DNA of 64,000 nt from Candidatus Lindowbacteria bacterium RIFCSPLOWO2_12_FULL_62_27 (GTDB lineage: Bacteria > Lindowbacteria > 2-12-FULL-62-27), in contig MFPR01000004.1 in NCBI GenBank assembly GCA_001784175.1, forward strand, positions 434,001 through 498,000, written 5' to 3'. The number at the start of each line of letters is the position of its first letter. The first letter of the stretch is position 1. A model generated the notes under the pieces. It was not told the DNA's origin and ran no database searches. It worked only from the letters and a program-made list of their open reading frames with translations. A program made the position numbers and the translations under genes. Below are positions 29,181 to 45,046 of this stretch, one piece after another.

Positions 29181-30104
29181 TTGATCACCGGCGGAGCCGG
29201 CTATCTGGGATCGATTCTCACGCGGCAACTCCTCGATCAGGGCTTCAAGGTCACCGTGCTCGATAATTTCATGTACCGGCAGGACAGCCTGCTGGAAGCA
29301 TGCGCCCATCCCGATTTCGCCGTCGTGCGCGGAGACTGCCGGGACGCGCCGCTCATGAGGTCCAGCCTGAAGGGCGTGGACGTGGTGATTCCCATGGCCG
29401 CGCTCGTGGGCGCGCCCGCGTGCGACCGGGACCGTTCCGCCGCGGTCCGCATCAACCGCGACGCGGTCCGGATGATCTGCAGGGAGATGTCCCCTGCGCA
29501 ATGGCTGCTTTTCCCCACCACCAACAGCGGCTACGGCGTGGGAGAGAACGGCAAGTTCTGCACGGAAGCGTCGCCCCTCCGTCCCATCAGCCTGTACGGG
29601 GTGACGAAGGCCGAGGCGGAGGCGGCGGTGATGGAACGCCGAAACTCGATCAGTTTCCGGCTGGCCACGGTCTTCGGAGTCTCGCCCCGGATGCGGATGG
29701 ACCTTCTGGTGAACGATTTTGTGTGGCGTGCACTGACCGACCGGTATCTGGTGCTGTTCGAAGGCCATTTCAAGAGGAATTACATCCATGTCCGGGACGT
29801 GGCCAAAGTGTTTCTGCACGGACTGAATCGCTTCTATTTCATGAGGGGGCAGGTGTACAACGTGGGCCTGGAGGACGCGAACCTCTCGAAGCGGGAACTC
29901 TGCGAACGGATCCGGGCTGTGATTTCCGATTTTGTCTTTTTCGAATCACCGATCGGGGAGGACGCGGACAAGCGCAATTACATCGTGTCGAACGCCAAAA
30001 TCCTCAAGACCGGGTTCCGGCCGGACTGGGATCTGGACCGGGGAATCCGGGAACTGGTCAAGGCCCATCTCATGCTGGGAAATGTCCGTCACGCCAACGC
30101 CTGA
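29181..30104 (+). CDS. NAD-dependent epimerase/dehydratase (start uncertain: TTG 29181 or ATA 29136)
   Basis: LITGGAGYLGS, AALVGAPAC, YGVTK, RLATVFG, RNYIHVRD. Confidence 0.85.
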   Translation: MITGGAGYLGSILTRQLLDQGFKVTVLDNFMYRQDSLLEACAHPDFAVVRGDCRDAPLMRSSLKGVDVVIPMAALVGAPACDRDRSAAVRINRDAVRMICREMSPAQWLLFPTTNSGYGVGENGKFCTEASPLRPISLYGVTKAEAEAAVMERRNSISFRLATVFGVSPRMRMDLLVNDFVWRALTDRYLVLFEGHFKRNYIHVRDVAKVFLHGLNRFYFMRGQVYNVGLEDANLSKRELCERIRAVISDFVFFESPIGEDADKRNYIVSNAKILKTGFRPDWDLDRGIRELVKAHLMLGNVRHANA

Positions 30105-32214
30105 AGGCGCAGCCCGACCCGGCGGCGGAACCGGCCGGCGAATCATTTACGTCGATGAGCTGAACGCCTTTTCCGCCGCCTGGCTGGCCCGGCATCGCGG
30201 GACGGTTTCCGGTATCTATTACATCGACGTATCCGGATGGATGAAACGGGTTCTCCCCGTGTTTCGCCGTGTGTTTCTGCGTGGCACGCCCATCCTCCCC
30301 CTTGACTTTTACATGGGCGACATCCGCACGGAACGTGGAGAGAACCTCTTCATCAAGATCTCTTTCGGGGATATCGGAAAATTCCACGGCCGGATGGTCC
30401 GCGACCATCTGGACCACGATCCGCTGTGCCGGATGTTCGCACGCCGGTTCGGCGCGGCCGAAATTTCGCTGTACGTGAAAATAAAAACCATGCGCGCGCT
30501 GCGAAGATACAATTCGTATCTCTACGCCGCCGCCTGGCATGCCCGGTCCCTGCCCGCCAATCCGCCCGCGGACCCCGGCTTCCTCCTCTCTCACTTCTAT
30601 TCCGACCTCCTCGCCGGCCACGCGATGTCGCTCGGCCTGCGGGTGACCGCCTACACAAATTTCTCCCGGCTGTTCTCGCGATGGATCCGGATTCTCAAGC
30701 GACTCCTCTGGCCCGTGCTGTCCCTGCGCGGCCTGACGCAAAAAAACGCCGGCCCGCGCCCGGCCGCGCCCATTCTGGCGGCGGGATTCAACGGCAAGTA
30801 CATCACGTTTGATCCGTCGGTTCGAAGCGATTTTTTCTGGCTCATTCCCTCGTCCCTGCCGAGGTCCAGGGTCATGATCTGCTTCCATCGGCATGACTAC
30901 CCCGTGACCGCCGAGATGGTGGACACGCTGAGGTCGGCCGGCATGAATTTCGTGGCCTTTTCAGAGTCCGCGCGGGTGGATCCCAGGGTACCTCTGTTTT
31001 CTCCCGGCCGGAGGGCCGCGTGGGATCTGGCCGTCTGGAATGCGCGGCTGGCCGTCCGGGTGTTGACGGCGATGTTCAGCGGCGCTGTTTCAAGTTTCTA
31101 TCTTGACTTGTTCGCGGATTTTGTCCGGCACTACGCGTGGTGGGGCGATTTTTTTCGCCGATACGGGGTGAGCGTCTACATCAACATCAACGATGCCTCC
31201 GACGATTCCGTACCCTTTCATCTGGCCCTCAAGGCCGCGGGCGGCGTCAGCGTCAGCTACCAGTTTTCCGCCCACAGCCTCAACCACAGCCCGGAAACCC
31301 TGATCCTGCCGATCTGCCGCGACGTCTTTTTTTCGTTCGGGCCCTATTACCGGCCTCTCCTAGACTCCGTGCATACAGCGATCGGCCACGGCGTCTATAC
31401 GGGTTACATCACCGACCAGGCCTTTGAGTTGGTGAAGGAAAGATCGCGGGGATACCGCGAGCGGCTTCAGCGGGCCGGGGCGAACTTCATTGTCGCATTT
31501 TTCGACGAAAACTCTTCCGATGACCGGATGAGAATGGTTTCCAACCGGAGAATGACCGGGGTTTACCGGCGCTTTCTCGACGCAGTCCTTTCCGACCCCA
31601 CGCTGGGACTCATCCTGAAACCCGGCTATCCGGGCACATTGTTCAAACGCCTGCCCGACATCCGGCCCCTCGTGGATCGCGCCCGTTCGACGGGCCGGTG
31701 CCTCCTTCTGGACGAGGGCGTGGTGGTGACGCGCGTGCTTCCGACGGAAGCCGCCCAGGCGGCGGACCTGGCCGTCGGGTTTCTGTACAGCGGAACAGCG
31801 GCGATGGAGTCCGTCCTCTCGGGCACGCCGACGGTTTATTTTGATTTTGAGAATCTCTTTGATCAGCCCGAGTACCAATGGCCGGCTCGGATCAGCCTCT
31901 CCGAGGCCCCAAGTGCCGGCGTCTCCGACGCCGGCCGGATCGTCTTCAACACGTGGGAGGAACTTTGGACGGCCATCCAGTCATTTCGGCGGGAGGCCCG
32001 GTCACGGCCGGATTTGAGGCGGACGATTCCTTTTCTTTCGCAGAAAGATCCCTTTCAGGACGGGCGGGCGGCGGAGCGCATGGGCGAGTATCTGTCGTCG
32101 CTCCTTATGTGCCTCGAACGGGAAGAGCCGGCGGCCGGGGCCGTGGCGTGGGCGAACCGGAAATTTTCGGAGAAATGGGGCGCGGACAAAATCGTTTCGC
32201 GTGCCGTCAGGTGA
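30082..32214 (+). CDS. Large surface-carbohydrate biosynthesis protein (GT-B-like); paralog of 12462..14570; carries an in-frame 48-bp element
   Basis: Colinear with 12462..14570 (YVDELN...RSDFFW...FFDENS...DPFQDGRAA). Confidence 0.6.
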   Translation: MSVTPTPEGAARPGGGTGRRIIYVDELNAFSAAWLARHRGTVSGIYYIDVSGWMKRVLPVFRRVFLRGTPILPLDFYMGDIRTERGENLFIKISFGDIGKFHGRMVRDHLDHDPLCRMFARRFGAAEISLYVKIKTMRALRRYNSYLYAAAWHARSLPANPPADPGFLLSHFYSDLLAGHAMSLGLRVTAYTNFSRLFSRWIRILKRLLWPVLSLRGLTQKNAGPRPAAPILAAGFNGKYITFDPSVRSDFFWLIPSSLPRSRVMICFHRHDYPVTAEMVDTLRSAGMNFVAFSESARVDPRVPLFSPGRRAAWDLAVWNARLAVRVLTAMFSGAVSSFYLDLFADFVRHYAWWGDFFRRYGVSVYININDASDDSVPFHLALKAAGGVSVSYQFSAHSLNHSPETLILPICRDVFFSFGPYYRPLLDSVHTAIGHGVYTGYITDQAFELVKERSRGYRERLQRAGANFIVAFFDENSSDDRMRMVSNRRMTGVYRRFLDAVLSDPTLGLILKPGYPGTLFKRLPDIRPLVDRARSTGRCLLLDEGVVVTRVLPTEAAQAADLAVGFLYSGTAAMESVLSGTPTVYFDFENLFDQPEYQWPARISLSEAPSAGVSDAGRIVFNTWEELWTAIQSFRREARSRPDLRRTIPFLSQKDPFQDGRAAERMGEYLSSLLMCLEREEPAAGAVAWANRKFSEKWGADKIVSRAVR
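31889..31936 (+). repeat. 48-bp double-hairpin mini-element, copy 1
   Basis: GGATCA GCCTC-TCC-GAGGC CCCAAGT GCCGGCGTC-TCC-GACGCCGGC C; absent from the paralog. Confidence 0.9.
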
Positions 32215-33286
32215 CGTTGGTTGGATTCGTGACGGCTCTGTAGACGGGCAGAAAGTCGTTGTGATAGACGCAGGTCGGCCGCGCGAGGTCATTCAACGAC
32301 AATTCGACAGCGCTCGGCGGGATGAAAGAAAATAAACGGTGCCCGGTCTTCAGCCGGCCCAGCATGCGCCGCAACTTCTCCCGGGCGCGGGCGCGGAATC
32401 CATTGAATCGTTGTGGCGCATACAGCCTGTCCCATTCGTGGGTTAAATGCCTTCGCACCACCCACCACAGATACTTTTTCGCGATCTCGTCCCCTTCACG
32501 GATCGACAGACCATCCTGGCGGGCCAGCTCTTCCGCCAGACAGCGCCGAACTCCATCGCTCTCCTCCCGCCAGCGGGGTGTGCTGTACCGTTCGAAGGGT
32601 TCCTGCGCGGCGAGAACAGAGTCCTGCCCGGGATGCGCCTGACACAGCTTGTAGAGTTTGTCCAGACGCTTGACCTTGCCGCGGATGACGGGAATACACG
32701 TGGTCAGGAGCTCGCCGAACCAGTTTCCAAGCCCGAATTCGATCGTCCGGGCGTATCCGTCCCGGATGTCTTCCGTCCGGTGGATCGAGTTTCCTGTAGC
32801 AAACCAATGGCTCATGAAACGGCCGAACCGGCCGGCGCCGGTGTCGTCTTCGATGTCAGCATACTCATAATGAACCATCCACTGGAACCGCCCATGGGCA
32901 CGGCCGGAATCGAGCCCGAACATGAGACAGAGGCCGTGCGCGACCCGGTACGCCGGATGCCGGTCCAGAAAATCCATGCAGAGATCCATCGTTTCAGGCA
33001 CGTAAAAATCGTCGTCGGCGGCGTACATGCAATAGGGGGTCCGGACATGCTCCAGTCCCCTGGCGATGCAATCGTTGAACGAGGCCCCCGGTTGGGCGAG
33101 ATGGGTCACGTTCAGCCGTTCGCGATACCTCCGGATCACGGAACCGATCGCGTCAAACGGTTCCGGATCGCTGGCATCCGAAATGACGATCGGATGCGAA
33201 AACGCCGCGGATGCATAATAGGTCAGGAACCGCGACAGGAACTGCGCGCGATTCCGCGTTGAAACCACAAGGGTCAACCGTTCCAT
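32207..33286 (-). CDS. GT-A glycosyltransferase (TIGR00180-like), copy A
   Basis: STRNRAQFLSRFLTYY, ISDAS, TPYCMYAADDDF, FGELL. Confidence 0.8.
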   Translation of the reverse strand: MERLTLVVSTRNRAQFLSRFLTYYASAAFSHPIVISDASDPEPFDAIGSVIRRYRERLNVTHLAQPGASFNDCIARGLEHVRTPYCMYAADDDFYVPETMDLCMDFLDRHPAYRVAHGLCLMFGLDSGRAHGRFQWMVHYEYADIEDDTGAGRFGRFMSHWFATGNSIHRTEDIRDGYARTIEFGLGNWFGELLTTCIPVIRGKVKRLDKLYKLCQAHPGQDSVLAAQEPFERYSTPRWREESDGVRRCLAEELARQDGLSIREGDEIAKKYLWWVVRRHLTHEWDRLYAPQRFNGFRARAREKLRRMLGRLKTGHRLFSFIPPSAVELSLNDLARPTCVYHNDFLPVYRAVTNPTNVT

Positions 33287-33295
33287 CGAAAGCCG

Positions 33296-33348
33296 ACTTA
33301 ACCTTCCGAACAAAAGGCTTGTCAAGTTTCATTCGCTTGTGCTTTCAT
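33296..33348. promoter_or_regulatory. Back-to-back promoters sharing the near-palindrome CTTGTCAAG as -35: TTGACA-N18-TTAAGT (-) and TTGTCA-N18-TTTCAT (+)
   Basis: 68-bp divergent gap; the + promoter is followed after 6 nt by ATG 33355. Confidence 0.45.
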
Positions 33349-33354
33349 GGATCC

Positions 33355-34134
33355 ATGCCAGTCGAATCGACGCATCCCTTCATTCTGACGGCGCACCAAC
33401 CCGTGTATCTGCCGTGGCTGGGGCTCATGCACAAAATCGCGCTGTCGGACATGTTCTGCCTGTTTGATGACGTGCAGTACTTGAAAAAGGACTGGATGAA
33501 TCGAAACAGGATCAAGACGGCCAACGGCCCGGTCTGGCTGACCGTGCCGGTTCTGAGCAGGGACCATTACCATTTGAAATGCAGGGACGTGAGGATCCAT
33601 GCCGCCCTGCCGTGGCGGAGGAAACACTGGCGTTCGATTCTGAACGCGTACCGGAGCGCTCCCTTCTTCAGGAGATACGCCGATTTTTTTGAAGACCTCT
33701 ATTCAAAGGAATGGACGCATCTCGCGGATTTGAATCAACATATCCTCCGGTATCTGCTCGACGCCTTTTCGATCAAAGTGGCTTGGGTTCGGGCGTCCGA
33801 CTGTTCTTTTGACGGAAAGGGGTCTGATCTCGTGCTGGACATGTGCCGCCGCCTGAATGCGGACATCTATGTGTTCGGCGCCTTGGGCCGAACCTACGCG
33901 CGGGTGGAGGATTTTGAAAAGGCCGGAATATCCGTTTATTTCCAGGACTATCGGCACCCCTCCTATCCGCAGCTCGGGGGGCAATTCTCGCCGTCCATGA
34001 GCGCGATCGATCTTCTCTTTAATCACGGCCCGGCCTCCTTCGAGATTTTGATGGAAGGCAATCACAGCCGGGAACACCTCGTCCGCGCCGCCGGGGTTCT
34101 GCCCCTGACGGAAGCCGGGGCGGGACGCCCATGA
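33355..34134 (+). CDS. WbqC family protein
   Basis: HQPVYLPWLG, NRNRIKT, WLTVPV, HPSYPQ, SAIDLLFNHG. Confidence 0.9.
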   Translation: MPVESTHPFILTAHQPVYLPWLGLMHKIALSDMFCLFDDVQYLKKDWMNRNRIKTANGPVWLTVPVLSRDHYHLKCRDVRIHAALPWRRKHWRSILNAYRSAPFFRRYADFFEDLYSKEWTHLADLNQHILRYLLDAFSIKVAWVRASDCSFDGKGSDLVLDMCRRLNADIYVFGALGRTYARVEDFEKAGISVYFQDYRHPSYPQLGGQFSPSMSAIDLLFNHGPASFEILMEGNHSREHLVRAAGVLPLTEAGAGRP

Positions 34135-35018
34135 GAATCCTGGTCACCGGCGCCGGAGGCTATTTGGGAAGCGCCTGCGTGGGCCATCTTGCCGGGCGCC
34201 ATGAAGTGACGGCGGGCGGGCACAGTTCACCGGAACGGCCGGACGCCGTCATTCACATGGCGTTTCGATTTCCTAAAGACAACTCCGCGCGGGCCGAACT
34301 TGAAAACCAAACCGCGTTGCGCGCCATGATTGATTTCTGCATGGCCCGGAATGTTTCGCGATTCATTTTTCCGTCCACGTATGCGGTGTATCCCTGCAGC
34401 GAGCGGACCGCGGTGGAATCGGACGCCCTGTTTCCAGAATCCGAATACGCCCGCGGAAAGGGGACGGCGGAAAGGATGCTGCAGGAGTCCGGCCTTCCCC
34501 ATGTGATCCTTCGTCTGACGCACGTCTATGGCCGGGGCACCGGCGTCGGCGACGAGGGCGGCGTCATCCTGCAGTGGCTGGATCGGGCCATGCATGGAAA
34601 GGACATCGAAGTGATCGACGGAGAAACCATCGAGCGGGACTATATCCACCTTCGTGACGTCCTGGCGGCCGTCGAGGCGTGCCTTGAAAGAGAGCCGGCC
34701 ATGGGACGCGTCTACAACATCGGAAGCGGCGCCGGCGTGACGCTTCTGGATCTCGCGCGACAGATCGCGCGGATCGCCGGCGGGGAAACCGGCCGGGACG
34801 TTTCGGTGCGGAATCGCCGGAGCGCAACCCCCGTGATCTGGCGGCGGCGCGTGGACCTCCGGCGGGCGGAGGAGGAATTGGGCTTTTATCCGCGGGTCAA
34901 CCTCGTGGAAGGCTTGAAAGAGATGGCGGCGGCGCGCACGACGGGACTGCCGGATCAGCGCCTCCGGCGCCCCAAGTGCCGGCGTCTCCGACGCCGGCCG
35001 GAGGCGGCCGCAAGATGA
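34131..35018 (+). CDS. NAD-dependent epimerase/dehydratase; C-terminus contains the 48-bp element
   Basis: ILVTGAGGYLG, STYAVY, YARGK, RDYIHLRD, YNIGSG. Confidence 0.85.
   Translation: MRILVTGAGGYLGSACVGHLAGRHEVTAGGHSSPERPDAVIHMAFRFPKDNSARAELENQTALRAMIDFCMARNVSRFIFPSTYAVYPCSERTAVESDALFPESEYARGKGTAERMLQESGLPHVILRLTHVYGRGTGVGDEGGVILQWLDRAMHGKDIEVIDGETIERDYIHLRDVLAAVEACLEREPAMGRVYNIGSGAGVTLLDLARQIARIAGGETGRDVSVRNRRSATPVIWRRRVDLRRAEEELGFYPRVNLVEGLKEMAAARTTGLPDQRLRRPKCRRLRRRPEAAAR
34952..34999 (+). repeat. 48-bp double-hairpin mini-element, copy 2
   Basis: GGATCA GCGCC-TCC-GGCGC CCCAAGT GCCGGCGTC-TCC-GACGCCGGC C; differs from copy 1 only by two compensatory base pairs. Confidence 0.9.
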
Positions 35019-36157
35019 GGATCAAGGGCGCGCATCCTGCATTTTCCGAGGGTGAAATAGCGTCGATCACCGGCGAGATCGCCGAGGTCCTTCGCTCGGG
35101 CCGGCTGATTTTGGGAAGCCGGACAGAGCGGTTTGAAGCAGCCTTCGCCGAATACGTTGGAACCCGGCATGCCATCGCCGTCAATTCCGCAACGACCGCG
35201 CTCCAGATCACCCTCCAGTATCTCGATGTCAGGGACCGCGAGGTCGTCCTTCCGACCAACACATTTCTGGCCACGGCCAACGCCGTCCTGTACGCGGGGG
35301 GACGACCGGTTTTCGGCGACATCGAACCGCAGTCTCTCGCCCTGTGCCCGGACAGCCTGATCCGGAACATCACGCCGCGCACAAAAGGCGTCATCCTCGT
35401 CCATCTGGCCGGATTCATCAGCCCGCATCTGGAAGACATTCAACAGATATGCCGGGACCGGAGGTTGTTTTTGATTGAAGACGCGTCGCATGCTCATGGG
35501 GCCCTTTACAAGGGTTCAAAGGCGGGGTCGCTGTCGTTCGCCGGATGTTTTTCCTTTTATCCCACCAAAGTCATGACGGCGGCGCTGGGCGGCATGATCA
35601 CGACAAACGATGCGGCCTTGGACCGCTACGCCAGAAGCCTTCGGCATCACGGCCAGACCGACCGGACGCTCGACGTGCTGACCCGGTTCGGGAACGACTG
35701 GCTTCTCGACGAAGTGCGATCCGTGATCGGCTATCATCAGTTGAGGGGGCTTGAGAATGCAGTTCTCAGGCGGAATGCCCTGGCGCGCCGGTACACGGAA
35801 CGATTGAAGGACGTGAAGGGCATTCAAGTATTTGAAGTTGCGCCTCACATCAGGCACGCCTACTATAAATTCCCGGTTTCCGTCGATCCGCCCATTTCCC
35901 GTGACCATCTGATGCGGCGGTTGAACGAGGAACATGACGTTGAGACCGGTGTACTCTATGATCCGCCCTGTCATCTCCAGCCCATTGTCATGGAAACGTT
36001 CGGCACGAAACCGGGTGACTGCCCGGTTTCCGAATCGATCCTCCGGCGTGAACTCTGCCTGCCGATGCATGTGAGCCTCACGGAAGAGGACGTCGATCGC
36101 GTGGTGGGAATCCTGTCCGCCGAAATCGATCTCCGGATGGACATGGCGGTCGCCTGA
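35015..36157 (+). CDS. DegT/DnrJ/EryC1/StrS sugar aminotransferase
   Basis: VNSATTAL, VHLAG, IEDASHAHG, FSFYPTK, LCLPMH. Confidence 0.9.
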   Translation: MRIKGAHPAFSEGEIASITGEIAEVLRSGRLILGSRTERFEAAFAEYVGTRHAIAVNSATTALQITLQYLDVRDREVVLPTNTFLATANAVLYAGGRPVFGDIEPQSLALCPDSLIRNITPRTKGVILVHLAGFISPHLEDIQQICRDRRLFLIEDASHAHGALYKGSKAGSLSFAGCFSFYPTKVMTAALGGMITTNDAALDRYARSLRHHGQTDRTLDVLTRFGNDWLLDEVRSVIGYHQLRGLENAVLRRNALARRYTERLKDVKGIQVFEVAPHIRHAYYKFPVSVDPPISRDHLMRRLNEEHDVETGVLYDPPCHLQPIVMETFGTKPGDCPVSESILRRELCLPMHVSLTEEDVDRVVGILSAEIDLRMDMAVA

Positions 36158-37212
36158 TGGGCGGCGTCAGAATCTCGGATCGTGCGATCGGGCCGGGGCA
36201 TCCCTGTTTTGTGGTAGCCGAGATCGGCACGAACCACGATCGGAACATTCAAACGGCCCGGACCCTCATCGATGCGGCGGCGACGGCCGGCGTCGACGCG
36301 GTCAAATTTCAATTTTATCACGGCGAAGATGTCGTCACGCCCCGGGCCACCGCCGGCGAGTACGGCCTTCACAGGATGTATCCCGGCCTTCACAGAATGG
36401 TGGACATCTACAATGGCCGGCTCCGGACCCCCCGGGCGTGGTTTCCCGAACTGAGCGACCGTGTGAGAAGGCTGGGAATGATTCCGTTCGCCGCGCCGCA
36501 CTGCATCGACTGCGCGCAGTTCGCAGTGTCGCTGGGCATGCCGGCCTTCAAAGTCGCGTCCGTTGAAATCACGAACCTGCAGTTTTTGGAGGCGCTGGCC
36601 GCATTTCGAAAACCGATCATCCTCTCCACCGGCTTCGCCACCTCACGCGAGATCGCCGAGGCCGTTCGCGCGGTTCGACGCGCCGGCCACTCGAAATTGA
36701 TTCTCCTGCACTGCGTTTCCGACTATCCGACTCGGCCGCAAGACGTCAATTTGCAATTCATCCAAACGCTCCGCCGGCGATTCGGCGCACCCGTCGGATT
36801 TTCCGACCATACGACAGGCTTGGCCGTGTCGTTCGCGGCCGTCGCGCTGGGGGCGAGCGTGATCGAACGCCACGTGACACTGGATCGAAACCGGAGCGGC
36901 CCCGATCATCCGTTTGCCCTCGAGCCGCAGATGCTGGTGGAACTCGTCCGGGGCATCCGCGACATTCATCGGGCGATGGGGAAGGCCGCCAAGAAACTCA
37001 CCGCATCCGAGAGGGACAAAAGAAAACTCTTCTTCCGCAGCATCGTCGCGTCGCGGCACATTCCCAGGGGCCAGAAGATCCGCGCCGCCGACCTTGATCT
37101 CAAGCGGCCGGGCACGGGTCTGCCTCCGAAAATGCTGCGCACCGTCATCGGCCGCAGAGTGAGGAGAGACATCCGGCAATATGATCTCATTGAAACCGGT
37201 ACGCTCGTCTGA
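36157..37212 (+). CDS. N-acetylneuraminate/pseudaminate synthase family (NeuB/PseI/SpsE) with C-terminal SAF domain
   Basis: VAEIGTNH, DAVKFQ, KVAS, ILSTG, LHCVSDYP, GFSDHT, IERHVTLD, KRPGTG. Confidence 0.9.
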   Translation: MGGVRISDRAIGPGHPCFVVAEIGTNHDRNIQTARTLIDAAATAGVDAVKFQFYHGEDVVTPRATAGEYGLHRMYPGLHRMVDIYNGRLRTPRAWFPELSDRVRRLGMIPFAAPHCIDCAQFAVSLGMPAFKVASVEITNLQFLEALAAFRKPIILSTGFATSREIAEAVRAVRRAGHSKLILLHCVSDYPTRPQDVNLQFIQTLRRRFGAPVGFSDHTTGLAVSFAAVALGASVIERHVTLDRNRSGPDHPFALEPQMLVELVRGIRDIHRAMGKAAKKLTASERDKRKLFFRSIVASRHIPRGQKIRAADLDLKRPGTGLPPKMLRTVIGRRVRRDIRQYDLIETGTLV

Positions 37213-37215
37213 ACC

Positions 37216-38211
37216 ATGAACCTGCCGACCATGCCGGCCGCTCGTGAATTCCAGAGACTGACGCCAGACCGCGCCGAGGCCCTGGTGCCTTTCATCAAGG
37301 CCCATCGAAGCATTTATGACGGACAATTCAACCCGGATGTCCCGCCCGACGTGCTGGGTGACTATTTCATTCATGACCTCCGGCAGAAATTCTCGGAGGG
37401 CGTGTGGGCGGGGCTGATGCATGAACCGGCAGGGGGGGGCTTCGCGGCAGCGGTATTTCATCACAGCGCATGGGACACCAATTTTTTCGGATTTCGGATG
37501 GATCGTCTCGATTATCTGTTTGGCTCACATGAAAACGCCATGGATGCTGTTCTTTGCCGATACGCCGGCCTTTCGGAGAAGGAGGGCGTCCGCCACATCT
37601 CTGCGCGGGTAAACATGTCTGACCGTCGGACCGCGAGCGTTCTGCGCCAAAACGGCTTTGCTGAGGTGTGCGTAAAGTCCCTCTGGCGCCACTCGCTGGC
37701 GGATCCAGCGGCGGTTCAGGTGCCATCACCCCACATTCGAGCATTTTCTCCGCAAGACGGCGACGATGTCCGAGTGCTGGCGGCGACGCTGGCCGGGGCC
37801 GGCAGATTCTCCATGGACGGACGCTTTGATCCGAAGCGCGTCCGGGAGATGTATGAGCAGTGGGCGGTCCACCTGTGCGAAACGGCGCCGGCGCAGGTTT
37901 TGGTGGCGCGCGTGCGGGGTGCCACGGCCGGATTTTTGGTGTTTACGGTTGGCGTGCCCTTGTACGGTGCGCCGGACGTTGCCGATTTGAAGCCGGGCGT
38001 TGTCACGCACGTGGCGGTTGATCCGTCCCTGAGGGGGCGTGGGTTCGGCCGGGCGCTGATTGTCGCAGGATTGAAGCGCATGTGCGAGCTGGGCGCCCGC
38101 GCGGCGTACGCGGCAACCGCGGCGGGAAACGCAGCCGGCGCCGCCGCTTTTCAATCGGCGGGATTCCGCCCGGTAACATCGCATTGGGATTTCCATCGAT
38201 GGCTCGACTGA
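37216..38211 (+). CDS. GNAT N-acyltransferase (WecD/RffC-like)
   Basis: WDTNFFG, RFSMDGRF, MYEQW, VAVDPSLRGRGFG. Confidence 0.8.
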   Translation: MNLPTMPAAREFQRLTPDRAEALVPFIKAHRSIYDGQFNPDVPPDVLGDYFIHDLRQKFSEGVWAGLMHEPAGGGFAAAVFHHSAWDTNFFGFRMDRLDYLFGSHENAMDAVLCRYAGLSEKEGVRHISARVNMSDRRTASVLRQNGFAEVCVKSLWRHSLADPAAVQVPSPHIRAFSPQDGDDVRVLAATLAGAGRFSMDGRFDPKRVREMYEQWAVHLCETAPAQVLVARVRGATAGFLVFTVGVPLYGAPDVADLKPGVVTHVAVDPSLRGRGFGRALIVAGLKRMCELGARAAYAATAAGNAAGAAAFQSAGFRPVTSHWDFHRWLD

Positions 38212-38924
38212 TTCAGGAGGGGGTGCGTCCCATTCTGGTCATCGCGGCCCACCCCGACGACGAGTCACTGGGCTGTGGCGGGACCATCGCGCGTCACAGC
38301 CGCCAGGGACACGACGTGCATCTTCTCATCCTCGGCGAGGGCGCCACGTCCAGAAGGCGCCATCGCACGGGCGGACGGGGCGCAGCAGCCAGGGAAGTAA
38401 AAGAATTGGACAAGGCCGTCCGCAAAGCGGCGCAGGTCCTGGGAATCAACGAGGTGCATCGCCGATATTTTCCCGACAACCGCTTTGACAGTCTGGACTT
38501 GCTCGAAATCGTCAAAACGATCGAAGAGGTCATCGAGAGGATCGGCCCCGGCCGCGTCTACACGCACAGCGCCGGGGATCTGAACCTCGACCACCGGATC
38601 GTTCACCAGGCCGTCCTGACGGCATGCCGCCCCCAGAACGGGTGCCCCGTCCAGACCATCCTGGCCTTCGAAATCCCGTCGTCCACCGAATGGCAGGGGC
38701 CTGGGAGTCACACGCCATTTTGGCCGCAAATCTACATGGACATTAAAGAGACACTGCCGTTAAAACAGAAGGCGCTCAGTTGTTATCCGACAGAAGTCCG
38801 ACCGTATCCCCATCCCCGGTCGCCTGAATCAATCGAGATCATCGCAAGACGTTGGGGCCTGAATGCAGGTCTGGAAGCCGCCGAGCCGTTCATGTTGATC
38901 CGGGATATCGTGACGTCTCCATGA
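38199..38924 (+). CDS. PIG-L/LmbE family N-deacetylase (start ATG 38199 or GTG 38223)
   Basis: AAHPDDESLGCGG, DNRFD, DLNLDH, EIPSSTEW, PHPRS. Confidence 0.9.
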   Translation: MARLIQEGVRPILVIAAHPDDESLGCGGTIARHSRQGHDVHLLILGEGATSRRRHRTGGRGAAAREVKELDKAVRKAAQVLGINEVHRRYFPDNRFDSLDLLEIVKTIEEVIERIGPGRVYTHSAGDLNLDHRIVHQAVLTACRPQNGCPVQTILAFEIPSSTEWQGPGSHTPFWPQIYMDIKETLPLKQKALSCYPTEVRPYPHPRSPESIEIIARRWGLNAGLEAAEPFMLIRDIVTSP

Positions 38925-40813
38925 AGCTCCTAATAAGGTGCGGCGTTCCTCCGGACGGCGCTTCTAAATCGCAGGCTGGACTGAAGGAGCTTCATCGCTC
39001 AGACCGATTCTGCATCGAGGGGGATACAGACATCCGGCGGTTCCGGGACGCCCTGGGGTCGAGCCTTTTTGTGGGAGGTCGATTCCTTGGGGTGGATTCG
39101 GAGGCGGCCAAGATCGTTTTCCAGAAGGGCATGGAGGCCGGCCGCGAGACTCTGGAAGGCCGCTATTTCCTCGTCCTTGTCCGGCCGGACGGCTCATGCG
39201 AAGTTTGCACGGATCGGTTCGGCCAACAGGAACTATATTATGAAGAAGACTCGGAGGGCTTGGTCTTGGCTACGGATATTTCGCTCCTGCCCCGCCGCGC
39301 TCAGCGCCATCACCAGCCGGCCCTTGCGCACGCGCTTTGCGTCTACGGCTGGCGTCCTCCCAAGCGTCACACCTTTTGGGAGGGTGCGCGGCGTCTGGGG
39401 ATCGACCAGGTTCTTCGAGTGGAGGGTGGCCGCGCGCATATCCGGGACATTCCGTTCCAGCCGCTCAAGACCGGCAATTATACCGAACACCATCTGAACG
39501 CGTATGCGGATTCCCTGCTCAATGCCATTCGAGTCCGGGGATCGGACCATGGAAATGTCGTTTACCTCTCGTCCGGGTGGGACTCGACCGCGATTCTGGC
39601 GTGCCTGGTGAAGCTTTTTGGCGCGGGGAAAGTTCGAGCGATCACCGGGCGGATCATCTACTCGGATCGAAGCGGCATCATCAACCGGTTTGAAACGGAC
39701 CGGGCACGGGCGGTCGCCGATTACTATGGGATCAAGCTCGACATCGTCGACATTGACTACCGACGGGAGGGGCCCGACCTCTTGGAGCGGTTGCAGCCGT
39801 TGATGCAGGCGCACCAGATCGGCAGTATTTCGTTGCTCACTCAGGAACGCTTCGCCGCGCACGTGGCTGCAACCTCGAACGGCGACGAATCGGTCTTTGC
39901 CGGAGAAATCAGCGACGGAGCGCACAATCTCGGATTCAGCCAGTTCACCACGATCTTCCACCCGGTTCATGAGTTTCGCGAGTACAGTGACAAGATGGCC
40001 AGCTATCTGTTCGGGCCCACGTTTCTTGGACGCTTGCAAGATGGAACGTACTTCGAGGACCCTGTTTACCAGTTGCTTCGGTCCCGCCTACCGGACGCCG
40101 CCTTCGATGCGCCTGCCAACGGCAGCCGGGCCGGCCACACCATGCATCTGCTGTCCAGTTTCTTTCTCCGTCTCAGACGCTTTCCGCTCTGGTCCTTGAG
40201 CAACAGCCGGGTCCTCACCGGGGACGGTCGCATGGCGTATCTTCGGGAAATGGAAACCACCTATCTGAAGCGGGCCGCCGAAGAGGCGACGGTCGAAACA
40301 CTCTACTCGTGGTATCTTTGGCTTTACAACTCGTTCCACTGGCAGGGTTCGACGGTCCTTTCGTTATACCTGACCGCTGAGGCGCAGGGCCTCAGGATGG
40401 AGATGCCGTTCTGGGACGGCCGGATACAGGAGTTTCTGTCTGCCATGCCCGAGTCTTGGGGCCGGGGGCTCGACCTCAATCCCACCAAATATCCGCTCAA
40501 ATGGACGCTGAAACATCGGGTCGATTACCCCTTCCATCTTCAGCGCGGCCCCCATTCCTATATTTACGACGTCCAGCCGGGATTCAGTCTGGTCGCCGAA
40601 GTGTTGTACGATTCCGCGTTTTCTCCCTATTTCAGGAAAATCCTGGCACGACGGCAATATCGGGAGGTGCTGTCACCAGAAGTGTTCGATCTGGAGCATA
40701 TTGACGGAATTGTCCACCGATATCAGGAGGGAACGGAAGTGCGTGGAGAGGAACTCAGCGAACTTTTGGCCCTATGCCAGCTCTCAGCCGCAGGATGGTT
40801 CGCCTCGCGATGA
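38921..40813 (+). CDS. Asparagine-synthase-like ATP pyrophosphatase/amide ligase
   Basis: TDRFG, PP-loop LSSGWDST, AGEISDG, MPFWD, KYPLK; no N-terminal catalytic Cys. Confidence 0.75.
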   Translation: MKLLIRCGVPPDGASKSQAGLKELHRSDRFCIEGDTDIRRFRDALGSSLFVGGRFLGVDSEAAKIVFQKGMEAGRETLEGRYFLVLVRPDGSCEVCTDRFGQQELYYEEDSEGLVLATDISLLPRRAQRHHQPALAHALCVYGWRPPKRHTFWEGARRLGIDQVLRVEGGRAHIRDIPFQPLKTGNYTEHHLNAYADSLLNAIRVRGSDHGNVVYLSSGWDSTAILACLVKLFGAGKVRAITGRIIYSDRSGIINRFETDRARAVADYYGIKLDIVDIDYRREGPDLLERLQPLMQAHQIGSISLLTQERFAAHVAATSNGDESVFAGEISDGAHNLGFSQFTTIFHPVHEFREYSDKMASYLFGPTFLGRLQDGTYFEDPVYQLLRSRLPDAAFDAPANGSRAGHTMHLLSSFFLRLRRFPLWSLSNSRVLTGDGRMAYLREMETTYLKRAAEEATVETLYSWYLWLYNSFHWQGSTVLSLYLTAEAQGLRMEMPFWDGRIQEFLSAMPESWGRGLDLNPTKYPLKWTLKHRVDYPFHLQRGPHSYIYDVQPGFSLVAEVLYDSAFSPYFRKILARRQYREVLSPEVFDLEHIDGIVHRYQEGTEVRGEELSELLALCQLSAAGWFASR

Positions 40814-42363
40814 TGAGAGGCGCGTCGAAACTGGACTTGCTGATCGTCTCGCCCGGCGACCACAAGATCATTTACCAGGACCTGGCGGCGGAATACGCCG
40901 CGCTCGAACCGCCCATTTGGGCGGGGCTCATTGCAAACTTTGCGAGACACAAAGGCTGCAGCGTCGATATCATCGACCAGCAGGCCGAGGGCCTGACGCC
41001 GGGGGATATCGTCCGGAGGGCCTTGGACGACCGGCCGAGGCTCGTGGCCATCCTCGTCTATGGCCAGCAGCCGTCCGCGTCCACTCAAAACATGACCATG
41101 GCCGGCGAGATCGCGGCGCAATTCAGTGAACACGCGCCGGAATTCAAAACGATCCTGATCGGCGGCCACGTCTCCGCCATCCCGGAACCCACGATGCGGG
41201 AGACGGCCTGCGATTTCGTATGCGAGGGGGAAGGCCCCTGCACCGTGGATGCGCTCCTTCAGCTTGAGAACATGAACGATCCCTCGGACTACTCCAAAGT
41301 CCCGGGTCTTTGGTACCGGCGCGATGGACACATCCTGAACACAAACCCCGCGCCGGTCGTGCCGGAAAAAGAACTGCCGGCCACCCTGCCCGGCATCGCA
41401 TGGGACCTTCTGCCGATGCATGCCTACCGGGCGCACAACTGGCACTGTTTCTCGCACATCCACGACCGCAGCCCCTATGCATCGATGTATACGAGCCTCG
41501 GCTGCCCGTTCAGATGCACCTTTTGCTGCATCAACGCACCCTTCGGATCGGCCGGACTGCGATGCTGGGATCCAAAATTCGTCATCACGGAACTCGACCT
41601 CCTGGCCAACCGCTACCGCGTCAAGAACATCAAAATCGCCGACGAGATGTTCGTCTTGAATGAACGCCACGTGCTGGATCTGTGCGACCTCATCATCGAA
41701 CGGGGCTATGAGTTTAACTTCTGGGCATACGCGCGCGTCGATACAGTCAAGGACAGGTTTCTGGAGAAACTCAAGAAAGCCGGATTCAACTGGCTCTGCC
41801 TCGGGATCGAATCGAGGAGCAACCATGTTCGCGCAGGGGTCGTCAAGGGACAGTACAGCGAAGAGGACATCTACGATACGGTGCAGCGCATCAAGAACGC
41901 CGGCATCCATGCCTTCGGCAACTACATCTTTGGCCTGCCGGACGACACCTGCGAATCGATGCAGGAAACGCTGGATCTGGCGGTCGACCTCAACTGTGAG
42001 ATGGCCAATTTTTATTGCGCCGCCGCCTACCCGGGATCCAAACTCTACGAGATGGCGAAGGCGAAGGGTTGGCGCCTCCCCGAGAAATGGCATGACTTCT
42101 CACAGCATTCCTACGGCCAGTTGCCGCTGCCGACAGAGACGCTTCCCGCAGGAGAAGTTTTGGCGTTTCGGGACAAGGCCTGGCAAATCTATTTCACCAA
42201 TCCCCGGTATCTCAATCTGATTCTGGAAAAATTCGGCCGGGAGGCGGTGGATCACATCGCCAAGCTGACCACGTATACGCTGCGTCGAAAGCATGCGGCG
42301 CCCCTGCGCGTTGAACCGTGTCTGCGAAAGGACGCGACGGAAGTGAAGGGCGTCAGCGTCTGA
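40810..42363 (+). CDS. B12-binding domain radical SAM protein
   Basis: EPPIW, GGHVSA, GEG, SLGCPFRCTFC, ADEMF, YARVD, LGIES, AYPGS. Confidence 0.9.
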   Translation: MMRGASKLDLLIVSPGDHKIIYQDLAAEYAALEPPIWAGLIANFARHKGCSVDIIDQQAEGLTPGDIVRRALDDRPRLVAILVYGQQPSASTQNMTMAGEIAAQFSEHAPEFKTILIGGHVSAIPEPTMRETACDFVCEGEGPCTVDALLQLENMNDPSDYSKVPGLWYRRDGHILNTNPAPVVPEKELPATLPGIAWDLLPMHAYRAHNWHCFSHIHDRSPYASMYTSLGCPFRCTFCCINAPFGSAGLRCWDPKFVITELDLLANRYRVKNIKIADEMFVLNERHVLDLCDLIIERGYEFNFWAYARVDTVKDRFLEKLKKAGFNWLCLGIESRSNHVRAGVVKGQYSEEDIYDTVQRIKNAGIHAFGNYIFGLPDDTCESMQETLDLAVDLNCEMANFYCAAAYPGSKLYEMAKAKGWRLPEKWHDFSQHSYGQLPLPTETLPAGEVLAFRDKAWQIYFTNPRYLNLILEKFGREAVDHIAKLTTYTLRRKHAAPLRVEPCLRKDATEVKGVSV

Positions 42364-42865
42364 AGGCGGGTTTCAGTCGATAATACAGGAGGGCGAAAGG
42401 TAGCGCCAGCGCGGCCAGACACGCCGCGGACAGGGCGCCGGCCATTGCCCGGATTCTGTCCAACACGAATCCTTTCCATGTCACTTGCCTGAAATGTTTC
42501 ACCGGCGCGTGGGAGACGATCCTTGAAACGCCGGCCGCCGTTAAAAAACGGATGATCCCCCCATATCCGCGGCCGTCCACATGGTTGTACGGCACATAGG
42601 CTTCATCGATCCGCTCCCGCCGGAGCCTCTCCAGACACAGCCGGTTCAATCCTCCGTAGGTCATCCACGGCCGGTCATACAGCAGAAAATCAGCTTCCAC
42701 ACCTTCCGATGCCTTGCGGATCTCCTTTTCCGCGGATGGCTGGACAATCCAGATCCACCGGACGCCAGCGTCTCCGACGCCGGCCGGATACCGCACCTCT
42801 TTGAGATACCGAAACAGAGCCAGACACTGCGACAGCGGGGCGGACCGGATCAGCAGGATGTTCAT
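42353..42865 (-). CDS. Small protein resembling the N-terminal half of GT9 heptosyltransferases, with a hydrophobic C-terminal tail
   Basis: MNILLIRSAP...YLK..RYP...WIVQ...LRRERIDEAYVPY; hydrophobic C-terminus; ATGA coupling. Confidence 0.55.
   Translation of the reverse strand: MNILLIRSAPLSQCLALFRYLKEVRYPAGVGDAGVRWIWIVQPSAEKEIRKASEGVEADFLLYDRPWMTYGGLNRLCLERLRRERIDEAYVPYNHVDGRGYGGIIRFLTAAGVSRIVSHAPVKHFRQVTWKGFVLDRIRAMAGALSAACLAALALPFALLYYRLKPAFRR
42760..42788 (+). repeat. Half copy of the 48-bp element (second hairpin plus CGGA end)
   Basis: GCCAGCGTC-TCC-GACGCCGGC-CGGA inside the 42353..42865 ORF (reads PAGVGDAG). Confidence 0.7.
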
Positions 42866-43953
42866 GGGACGGTTGCTTCGACAGGACGGGTCACGGCTTC
42901 ACAGACGGGCGCGAAGTCGTCGTGATAAACGGAGGTCGGCCGAGCGAGGTCGTTCAACGACAATTCGACGGCGTCCGTCGGGATGAAAGATAACATGCGG
43001 TGGGCGGATTTCAGCCGTCCCAGCATGCGCCGCAACGTCTCCCGGGAGGAGGCGCGAAATCCGTTAAACCGGTGCGGCGCATAGAATCTGTCCCACTCCC
43101 GGCTCAAATACTTTCCCAGCATCCACCAAAGGTATTTTTTCGCAGTCTCTTCCCCTTCCCGGACCGACATACCGTCCTGGCGGGCCAGTTCCTCCGCGAG
43201 GCAACGCTGGACTCCCTCGCACTCGCCCCGCCAGGGGGCTGCGCAGAACCATTCGAAGAGTCCGGGTTCCTGCGAGCCGCGGGCTGAGACCTGGCCGGGA
43301 TGGGCCTGACACAGTTTGTAGAGTTTCTCCAGACGCTTGACCTTGCCGCGGATGACGGGAATGCATGTGGTCAGGATCTCGGCGAACTCATATCCAAGCT
43401 TGCGTTCAATCACGCGGGTGTATCCGTCCCGGACGTCTTCCGTCCGGTGGATCGAGTTTCCGGTCGCAAACCAATGGCTCATGAAGCGGCCTAACCGGCC
43501 GGCGCCGGTGTCGTCTTCGATGTCGGCGTACTCATAATGCGTCATCCACTGGAACCGGCCATGGGTCTGGCCGGAATCAAGCCCGAACATGAGGCAGAGG
43601 CCATGCGCGACCCGGTACGCCGGATGCCGGTCCAGAAAATCCATGCAGAGATCCATCGTTTCAGGCACGTAAAAGTCGTCGTCGGACGCCAGCATGCAGT
43701 AGGGCGTCCGGGCCTGCGCCAGGCCCTGCGCCAGGCAAATGTTGGCGGAGGCCCGCGGATGGGCGAGATGGGTCACGTTCAATTGATCGCGATATCGCCG
43801 GATCATGGAAACGATGGCCTCAAAAGGTTCGGGGTCGCTCGCGTCTGAAATAATGATGGGATGTGAAAAGGCGCGGCCCGCGTAATACGCAAGAAACCGG
43901 GACAGGAACTGTACGCGGTTCCGCGTGGTCACCACCATGGTCAACCTGGGCAT
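42862..43953 (-). CDS. GT-A glycosyltransferase (TIGR00180-like), copy B
   Basis: Highly similar to 32207..33286; ATG 43953 after GGAGG. Confidence 0.8.
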   Translation of the reverse strand: MPRLTMVVTTRNRVQFLSRFLAYYAGRAFSHPIIISDASDPEPFEAIVSMIRRYRDQLNVTHLAHPRASANICLAQGLAQARTPYCMLASDDDFYVPETMDLCMDFLDRHPAYRVAHGLCLMFGLDSGQTHGRFQWMTHYEYADIEDDTGAGRLGRFMSHWFATGNSIHRTEDVRDGYTRVIERKLGYEFAEILTTCIPVIRGKVKRLEKLYKLCQAHPGQVSARGSQEPGLFEWFCAAPWRGECEGVQRCLAEELARQDGMSVREGEETAKKYLWWMLGKYLSREWDRFYAPHRFNGFRASSRETLRRMLGRLKSAHRMLSFIPTDAVELSLNDLARPTSVYHDDFAPVCEAVTRPVEATVP

Positions 43954-43967
43954 GTCCGACAGCCTCC

Positions 43968-44063
43968 GGATCAGCCTCTCCGAGGCCTCAAGTGCCGGCG
44001 TCTCGGACCAGCGCCTCCGGCGCCTCAAGTGTCGGAGTCTCCGACTCCGACCCGACGCCGGCT
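43968..44063 (+). repeat. Two nested 48-bp elements (outer copy split by inner copy at 44005..44052)
   Basis: 96 bp = 2 x 48; removing 44005..44052 restores the outer GCCGGCGTC-TCC-GACGCCGGC hairpin. Confidence 0.9.
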
Positions 44064-45046
44064 GGACAGGCTGCCGTAAGGCTCATCACGTCCGATAGAA
44101 ATTCTTGGGAAAGCCGGATGTCGTTTTGATTGCTGGCGTACCGAAAGCCGCTCTTGACCCGCCGGCCGTTCTTGCTGATGTCACCCAAGGGCGGGAACGC
44201 CGGATAAATCACATAGTGGTCGTCAAACTCGCGCGTGTGCTCGCTTTCGTCCTCCGTGATCAATACCTCATGGATCTTTTCTCCCGGTCGCTTGCCGATA
44301 AATTCGAGCTCGCAGTCCGGCGCGATCAGGCGCGCAATATCCACCACCCGCGTGCTCGCGATTTTCGGAACGAGGATTTCACCGCCATGCATCCGTTCGA
44401 GACAGGTGAGCACGAATTCCACGGCGTTGTCGAGCGACATCCAGAAGCGCGTCATGCGGGGGTCGGTCACAATCAGTTTTCCGCTTTCCCGCTGCTCGAG
44501 AAACAGGGGCACCACGCTTCCGCGGCTCGCCAGAACATTTCCGTATCGCACCACGCTGAACCGCGTCCCCTTCTCCCCGGAATAGACATTGGCCGCGACA
44601 AACAATTTCTCCGCGCAGAGTTTCGTGGCCCCATAGAGATTGACGGGGTGAACCGCCTTGTCCGTGCTCAGGGCGATCACCTTCCGAACGCCCTGGTCGA
44701 TGGCCGCGTTCAGGACGTTCTCCGCACCGATGACGTTGGTCTTGACGGCTTCGATGGGATTGTACTCCAGGGTCGGCACCTGTTTGAGCGCCGCCGCGTG
44801 AATGACGATGTCCACGCCCTGAAAGGCCCGGTCCAAGCGGCTCTTGTCGCGCACATCCCCGATGAAAAATCGGATGGCCGGGTTCCCCACGAACTCCCGC
44901 TGCATCTCCACCTGCTTGAGTTCGTCCCGGCTGAAGATGATCAATTTTTCAGGCAACATTCGGTCGAGGACGAATCTCGCGAAATGTCTCCCGAACGACC
45001 CCGTTCCCCCCGTGACGAGCACCACTCGTCCGTTCAGATCAATCAT
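43988..45046 (-). CDS. pseB: UDP-N-acetylglucosamine 4,6-dehydratase (inverting)
   Basis: VTGGTGSFG, FSRDELKQ, HAAALKQVP, LSTDKA, YGATK, RYGNV, RPGEKIHE; stop codon lies inside the repeat. Confidence 0.9.
   Translation of the reverse strand: MIDLNGRVVLVTGGTGSFGRHFARFVLDRMLPEKLIIFSRDELKQVEMQREFVGNPAIRFFIGDVRDKSRLDRAFQGVDIVIHAAALKQVPTLEYNPIEAVKTNVIGAENVLNAAIDQGVRKVIALSTDKAVHPVNLYGATKLCAEKLFVAANVYSGEKGTRFSVVRYGNVLASRGSVVPLFLEQRESGKLIVTDPRMTRFWMSLDNAVEFVLTCLERMHGGEILVPKIASTRVVDIARLIAPDCELEFIGKRPGEKIHEVLITEDESEHTREFDDHYVIYPAFPPLGDISKNGRRVKSGFRYASNQNDIRLSQEFLSDVMSLTAACPAGVGSESETPTLEAPEALVRDAGT

Follow-up and report, generated by a model that had tools for sequence, protein, structure and literature searches.

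A 48-bp double-hairpin element inserted in frame in protein-coding genes of Candidatus Lindowbacteria

A DNA element of 48 bp, formed of two short hairpins, is inserted within protein-coding genes of the groundwater bacterium Candidatus Lindowbacteria bacterium RIFCSPLOWO2_12_FULL_62_27 (the source genome, G000). It was noticed in a stretch of 64,000 nucleotides, G000:C4:434001-498000 (here called the window), which is a large glycan-biosynthesis locus. Insertion is precise, leaves no target duplication and has taken place at many independent sites, and the element is almost certainly a non-autonomous mobile element. A preliminary description, made from the letters of the window, had suggested an uncharacterised non-autonomous mobile element lying in frame in genes, and this is borne out by precise empty sites and by the lack of any Rfam match for the element (only tRNAs came near the gathering score). 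The four full copies that it had placed in the window are present at their coordinates, and a pattern of the element's first 38 bases matches the window four times, as against no match in 100 shuffles. Its proposed link to glycan enzymes proved to be an accident of the window, the remaining intragenic copies being found in genes of every kind.

Structure and conservation

The conserved features are two short hairpins with pyrimidine triloops, two unpaired 7-nt linkers with fixed bases, and the length of 48. Among 30 chosen copies, stem cells are paired in 97.1% of cases, against at most 51% in slid controls; double changes occur in 8 of the 14 stem pairs and both stems covary, with the reservation that kinship among the sequences inflates the shuffle test. 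The layout of stems, loops and compensatory changes, with three stop-free plus-strand frames, is as first described, and so is the conservation of structure rather than peptide, the copies being read in five frames. The middle C of the triloops is fixed. Of the unpaired bases, G1, G2, C5 and A6 are invariant and C22, A23, G25 and T26 are nearly so, and the invariant linker bases suggest recognition by a protein.

Both strands are predicted to fold into two hairpins (z about -3 to -5), and folding energy does not discriminate the active strand. Stability of GNA triloops on the minus strand is doubtful as the key feature, since variants of the loop do away with it, and the middle base stays fixed. 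The ends of the element are not complementary, i.e. there are no terminal inverted repeats. A C precedes the element in 123 of 124 copies of the family (the four genomes G000 to G003) and in 32 of 37 copies of other lineages, a T standing there in the remaining cases of the latter. In five informative orthologue comparisons this leading C went with the element three times and with the target twice, and the ends are thus known to within one base. They are fixed to that precision across 161 copies, with no circular permutations.

Genome-wide copies and reading frames

A strict structural scan of the source genome returned 46 matches, against none in a Markov control, and a profile search, with matches accepted to E = 1, returned 85, the reversed genome yielding a single weak one. 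A genome-wide count had been proposed in the preliminary description as a check; it gives 60 full 48-mers without gaps. They fall into 36 variants, of which the most frequent two have 11 and 10 copies. Three of the 60 lie in the window, in addition to one interrupted copy. Further forms include a 57-bp form, truncated copies, and 24-bp half elements that arise by deletion between the two hairpins. Under a simple gene model of our own making, in which 88% of the genome is coding, 52 of the 60 copies (87%) are intragenic, 7 are intergenic and 1 spans a gene end; about one gene in 60 bears a copy. The element is on the same strand as the host gene in 34 of the intragenic copies and on the opposite strand in 18.

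Five of the six reading frames of the element are open, and one minus-strand frame has a stop. Among the 48 non-nested intragenic copies, with expectations derived from target availability, no copy uses the frame with the stop (6.7 expected, p = 0.0013), 18 use the frame rich in small residues where 8.7 were expected (p = 0.002), and 2 use the Arg-rich frame, a number not significantly below the expected 5.2. Within 40 codons of the C-terminus lie 12 of the 52 copies, and within the same distance of the N-terminus 7; 9% would be expected for each. Judged from the open reading frames (ORFs), this use of frames fits tolerated insertions in genes, the inserts being presumably translated. Survival in genes is a matter of a length that is a multiple of three together with five open frames of six. 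The peptides themselves are proposed to be tolerated passengers with no function.

Precise insertion

In the window, the host gene of copy 1 has exactly 16 additional residues at the element when compared with its paralogue at 12462-14570, and deleting the 48 bp from the DNA gives an alignment free of gaps. Orthologues with empty sites, likewise proposed as a check, were found for copies in other genomes. Of 101 such copies, 19 had a source-genome orthologue spanning the site, and the element is absent from all 19. After removal of the 48 bp, ten of these foreign sites align ungapped over 30 bases on each side; the other nine have 1-15 gap columns and more diverged flanks. An IS91-like transposase gene in G002 carries a clean 16-residue insert that is absent in 76-78% identical homologues, and one gene family has been hit independently at different positions in two genera (L068, G000:C33). 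Left and right flanks vary independently, which shows that no target duplication is made.

Contigs of a related strain cover copy 1 and a remnant in the window, and break at the repeat at copy 2 and at the nested pair of copies. Copy 1 occupies the identical site in contigs of an independent 2020 study and is therefore not an assembly artefact. The remnant lacks 15 bp, counted from 42762, in related-strain contigs (three runs, one study), and its site minus those 15 bp resembles the junction-type target described next.

Target choice

Insertion adjoins a C. As first reported, the empty sites reconstructed in the window are C^GGA in three cases and C^CGA in one; over all sites the target is broader than C^GGA. 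In the family, about 8 bases of the left flank mimic the element's own 3' end, and two to seven bases of the right flank repeat the element's start, so that the target resembles the element's end-to-start junction. This likeness is well above frame-matched controls at positions -8 to -2, +1 and +2 and holds when conditioned on the last four bases. For example, of 48 sites, 42 match at -2 (control 15.2), 28 at -6 (control 12.4) and 42 at +1 (control 16.8). When scored with a matrix built from 28 sites in other genomes, 32 of 54 source-genome sites exceed the 95th percentile for C sites taken at random. Head-to-tail arrays of at least two units are common in G002; the 3' end of a resident copy is a perfect junction-like target, and the likeness of target to junction accounts for such arrays. 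Many targets share only the C. Palindromic symmetry around the empty sites of the family is not above shuffled levels.

A second class of sites lies in hairpin loops. In other lineages 13 of 35 distinct sites are of this kind, against a shuffled mean of 3.4 and maximum of 7, and among family copies of the T28 type 6 of 8 (shuffled mean 3.1). In the main family subtype, loop sites are no commoner than after shuffling (14 of 115 vs 14.7). Of 13 copies of the T28-A46 subtype, 7 are situated within the loops of another copy and 4 directly behind the hairpin of a related repeat, as against 2 of 118 other copies; three of those four are one compound unit and the copies are related, so that the nominal p of 2e-12 is overstated. 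By eye, the loop hosts in other lineages include repeats that we take to be CGTC-type, BoxC-like, GTAG-type and IS5-like miniature repeats. The hairpin-loop mode is apparently older than the junction mode.

Distribution

The element is present in all four genomes of the family, in numbers from 1 to more than 60. Pattern matches number 51 in G002, 25 in G003 and 1 in G001, with none in 57 other genomes. A left-half pattern occurs in 1 of 397 unrelated genomes, which is at control level, and a covariance model gave one weak match in 147 genomes. An exact-pattern scan of 185,579 genomes yielded 41 stretches, three of them in a Deltaproteobacteria record (L043, L053, L063). Around that genome the covariance model matched 9 of 149 genomes; on inspection, 8 hold true 48-mers and one (G090) does not. 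About 18 copies are found in G081 and 13-14 in G061. In this lineage, which belongs to another phylum, the length is still 48 and the stems differ. Hairpin 2 carries tandem G-A mismatches in 20 of 37 other-lineage copies, as against 2 of 124 family copies, and the two such variants tested fold no better than shuffles.

A metagenome scan gave 81 stretches, of which 56 were identical to the source genome and were dropped; most of the other 25 are sites known in G002, and two (L171, L208) come from other organisms. Four scans of viral contigs gave no match, phage records gave none, and one partial match among plasmids, at E 0.03, was taken as chance.

Comparison with known repeat families

The element acts like Rickettsia palindromic elements (RPEs) in genes and like the PATE and SMR-A repeats of Haloquadratum walsbyi in build and nesting, and it is set apart by sequence from RPEs, from repetitive extragenic palindromes (REPs), from the miniature transposable elements that have inverted repeats (MITEs), from descent of the PATE kind and from IS91. 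The published sources cited here and below were available in part, and the comparisons extend to those parts. With RPEs it shares the character of a short palindromic repeat lying in frame in many unrelated protein genes, tolerated there and with its mobiliser unknown (PMC2229807, PMC10969869); the copies in predicted ORFs, seen as 16-residue gaps, agree with this. RPEs are 105-146 bp long, with a long stem-loop and terminal inverted repeats (PMC2229807), whereas the present element has 48 bp, two separate hairpins and no terminal repeats, uses five frames, occurs in more than one phylum and has a junction-like target.

PATEs likewise have no terminal inverted repeats, near-terminal palindromes and no target duplication, and a 52-bp terminal-only form is perhaps mobile (PMC3119063). 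They match the ends of IS605-type transposons of the same genome (PMC3119063); no such parent was found here, the Y1 genes having other ends. Beside the fixed target of 4-6 bases and the lagging-strand bias of PATEs, the element shows a degenerate target with one near-invariant C and a strand count, given below, that falls short of significance. SMR-A inserts in the palindromes of other elements by a mechanism that is unknown, and differs in its length of about 110 bp and its inverted termini; for neither PATEs nor SMR-A is in-frame invasion of genes among the features described in the available text (PMC3119063).

REPs and REPINs have short perfect stems, loops of 3-4 nt, an unpaired foot and a cut after C (PMC3733652, PMC6006769, PMC8266576), and some GTAG and CGTC repeats are intragenic and in frame, even within their own transposase gene (PMC3733652, PMC6006769). 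The element differs in having no GTAG/GTGG or CGTC foot (in the alignment CGTC lies solely inside stem 2), no inverted doublet unit and no flanked RAYT (TnpA-REP), and in being largely intragenic rather than extragenic. Class 3 TnpA-Y1 repeats have a CnGA foot, which would correspond to a CGGA start if the leading C is the element's, and tandem G-A mismatches occur in both; they consist of one hairpin with a 4-nt loop and differ in sequence (PMC6006769). Three motifs of the element had no match in Table S1 of PMC6006769, and a motif scan of the source genome found no class 3-like protein. The first 7 bases of the element are similar to GGGG[AT][CG]A[CG], the motif that opens the long terminal inverted repeats of TIRtrons (TIRYT, Y1 subclass 2.1), but there is no inverted pair, and none of 34 TIRtron ends in the family matches the element profile.

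The following identities were set aside. A MITE moved by a DDE transposase is contradicted by the independent flanks, by orthologues restored on exact removal of 48 bp, and by the lack of terminal inverted repeats and duplication. For an IS91 or ISCR derivative, the ends of the IS91-like element L116 do not match, a presumed oriIS consensus being used in that comparison, and the copy lies inside its gene. A CRISPR repeat does not agree with head-to-tail arrays without spacers, mostly solitary copies and the Rfam result. No description of this 48-bp family was found in the literature searched, which lay outside subscription journals and ISfinder, and some supplements could hold a related repeat.

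Mechanism and the search for a mobilising enzyme

On balance we lean, by a little, towards movement in trans as single-stranded DNA through the chemistry of HUH (Y1 or Y2) single-strand transposases, as in the PATEs of IS200/IS605 and in REPs. An enzyme encoded elsewhere would bind the folded single strand and cut both ends; these would be joined into a small circle, or the strand transferred directly, and then joined into the target. The same recognition would serve donor and target, since the target resembles the element's own end-to-start junction. In a second mode, insertion would occur in exposed DNA hairpin loops, those of the element or of other repeats, on which it would then hitchhike. 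Such a process is suggested by the combination of precise duplication-free insertion, conserved hairpins of the single strand, cutting next to a C, entry into or close to resident hairpins, and tandem arrays. PATEs, with sub-terminal hairpins and a short target motif, combine the lack of target duplication with a size of 52 bp (PMC3119063), and REP nucleases cut a single strand after a C near the bound hairpin (PMC8266576).

A number of results weigh against an HUH enzyme. The preliminary description had pointed to RAYT/HUH handling, a link that we continue to infer: the element flanks none of the 54 Y1 loci in 12 element-bearing genomes (8 in the source genome, 26 in G001-G003, 20 in eight other-lineage genomes). 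All genomes examined are incomplete metagenome-assembled genomes, in which genes flanked by repeats are frequently unassembled, and a cognate RAYT or other mobiliser could be missing from them. In their motifs and inverted ends, the family's Y1 genes, which number 8, 6, 10 and 10 in the four genomes, agree with subclass 2.1 / TIRYT, a group that in the part of the survey available is without REPs (PMC6006769). No IS200-type short TnpA and no TnpB was found in the family. G061 has its copies and no Y1 match, and G001 has 6 Y1 genes and its single copy. A link to IS91 was rejected, with a copy in 1 of 120 homologues and unrelated ends, though two IS91 remnants bear one at a second position. The target matches 8 bases on one side and 2-7 on the other, more than the 2-4 bases read by HUH guides, and models with a guide tetranucleotide (the IS608 and REP rules) show by inspection no covariation with targets. 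Transposition of the IS200/IS605 kind predicts a bias for one replication strand; 21 of 54 copies are on the G-rich strand (p = 0.13), and an initial bias (20 of 60, p = 0.013) was confounded by gene orientation and not significant once corrected. The read data, available as contigs only, showed neither a circle nor any full-length empty site that was polymorphic.

The search of other enzyme classes gave similar results. None of 4 IS110 loci, 1 Y2 locus, 30 scanned of 49 tyrosine-recombinase matches, 11 reverse transcriptase loci, 8 DUF559 loci and 12 GIY-YIG loci is flanked by the element, the DUF559 and GIY-YIG scan giving one partial match of 9.4 bits. No TnpB element was found in seven genomes, which gave one weak match in a 1552-aa frame, and no gene family was found to recur beside copies.

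It is possible, if unlikely, that a site-specific recombinase, either of IS110 type or a tyrosine recombinase working on folded single strands in the manner of integron integrases, brings about recombination between the circle junction and a chromosomal site that resembles it, over a core of 1 base. Likeness to the junction on both sides of the cut speaks for this, as do perfect targets leading to tandem arrays, the three-to-two division of the boundary base, which mismatch resolution in the core could give, and the 14 tyrosine-recombinase matches and one IS110 gene of the source genome. The loop-targeting mode, which has no junction likeness, speaks against it; no element or junction stands at the ends of the recombinase and IS110 loci scanned, and G003 and G061 have no IS110 match. 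Movement with no dedicated enzyme, in which replication halts at the stable hairpins, or host nucleases open them, and the 48-mer is then copied at microhomologies through template switching or the annealing of single strands, is a more doubtful proposal. Junction-like targets are microhomologies, the 24-bp halves, the 15-bp remnant and the arrays resemble slippage products, and no enzyme has come to light, but ends fixed to a base without permutations, a length of 48 kept across lineages with differing stems, invariant unpaired bases and targets that often share only the C are not what it would lead one to expect.

We consider improbable an RNA route, in which the folded and excised transcript would be copied into DNA at new sites by a reverse transcriptase, whether that of a group II intron or another. 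Copies stand on both gene strands, there is no 5' truncation series, target duplication or Rfam match, and a copy is near only 2 of 11 reverse transcriptase loci, one of these inside an IS91 remnant. In its favour are reverse transcriptases in all five genomes tested, one type being single-copy in all four family genomes with an element copy just downstream in the source genome, together with one-sided G-T changes and the tandem G-A variant of hairpin 2, which are compatible with RNA. That the element is a module selected by the host, acting as an mRNA hairpin in pausing or stability or as a flexible peptide linker, is hard to credit. The excess of the small-residue frame and of copies near C-termini would suit it; these biases are compatible with purifying selection alone, and the use of five frames and both strands, the source-genome orthologues without a copy at all 19 compared sites, and the wide range of copy number within the family all oppose it.

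A broader view, which we regard as speculative and rather improbable, is that the 48-nt unit is among the smallest precisely mobile pieces of DNA known and crosses phyla by means of an enzyme class not yet tied to repeats, with two sequence-dependent target modes. The ancestral form would parasitise the hairpin loops of repeats, and a single compensated base-pair swap in stem 2 would accompany a change of target to coding sites that resemble the junction, with a burst of insertion in genes. If true, this would amount to a natural, DNA-programmed, scarless in-frame insertion of peptides. The movement of RPE-like and CGTC-type repeats is still to be explained; as far as the available parts of the sources go, neither a dedicated enzyme nor experimental support was known at publication (PMC3733652, PMC2229807). 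The present family is suited to direct enzyme tests by its one-oligonucleotide size, ends known to within a base, cross-genome target model and two target modes, together with naturally occurring variants of the stems. Outside Rickettsia it further provides a clear case of selfish DNA creating protein loops and tails, a phenomenon itself already known.

Copies and host genes in the window

Table 1. Copies of the element and the genes that carry them, in window coordinates
Feature	Position	Strand	Remarks
Full copy 1	31889..31936	+	in frame within ORF 30082-32214, adding 16 residues; boundary possibly 31888-31935
Full copy 2, consensus type	34952..34999	+	C-terminal tail of epimerase ORF 34131-35018, Arg-rich frame
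Remnant, hairpin 2 and 3' end only	42760..42785 (26 bp)	+	in frame in minus-strand ORF 42865-42353
Outer copy	43968..44063 (43968-44004 plus 44053-44063)	+	split within hairpin 2 loop
Inner copy, T28-A46 subtype	44005..44052	+	nested in hairpin 2 loop of outer copy
Host gene of copy 1	30082..32214	+	no Pfam match; paralogue 12462-14570
Host gene of copy 2, NAD-dependent epimerase/dehydratase	34131..35018	+	PF01370
Host gene of remnant	42353..42865	-	no Pfam match
Host gene of nested pair, Polysacc_synt_2 dehydratase	43988..45046	-	PF02719

A half copy had been described at 42760-42788; a partial copy is indeed present there, as the shorter remnant of Table 1. Once the inner copy is taken out, the outer copy measures 48 bp. 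The inner copy is read from the minus strand at the C-terminus of its host gene, which we take to be PseB-like. A variant base of the outer copy creates the TGA (43988-43990, minus strand) that is the stop of this ORF, and bases 43968-43987 of the outer copy, lying beyond the TGA, are noncoding in it. The glycan locus also holds recent paralogue pairs, 32207-33286/42862-43953 (80-87% identical in DNA), 12462-14570/30082-32214 and 14439-15518/33355-34134, and some paralogues are on the opposite strand to their neighbours.

Related repeats and neighbouring elements

Wider two-hairpin units with other 5' ends and linkers occur at L346-L362 (G081), L208, L217 and L218, nested in one another and in IS5-like miniature elements; they probably form a superfamily that includes the 48-mer. 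At L328:650-1026 (G074:C62), two inverted 48-mers in similar sequence flank a 65-codon ORF beside a tRNA gene, and seem to have hit both inverted ends of a small cassette. A compound repeat with the 48-mer directly adjoins tRNA genes in two of its copies (L063, L083; G061).

Many of the 34 TIRYT-type Y1 genes of the family (L001-L008, L086-L111) are preceded on the outside by imperfect tandem repeats composed of a few flank bases and the first bases of the end, as if repeatedly cut and rejoined. Two remnants of an IS91-like 3' end, G000:C3:14801-14982 and L119:330-480, carry the same element subtype in the same place in two genera, and in L119 a group II intron follows. The single-copy reverse transcriptase-like ORF of the family (G000:C4:147559-149124, L127; also L121, L124, L126) has a YVDD motif and a long, helical-looking C-terminal part. 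In G003, CGTC-type repeats flank a GIY-YIG gene. The source genome is abundant in other small repeats, namely heptamer tandem repeats and BoxC-like palindromes serving as inverted ends of DUF559 genes, such small-repeat families being seen also at L219-L221, L224 and L229.

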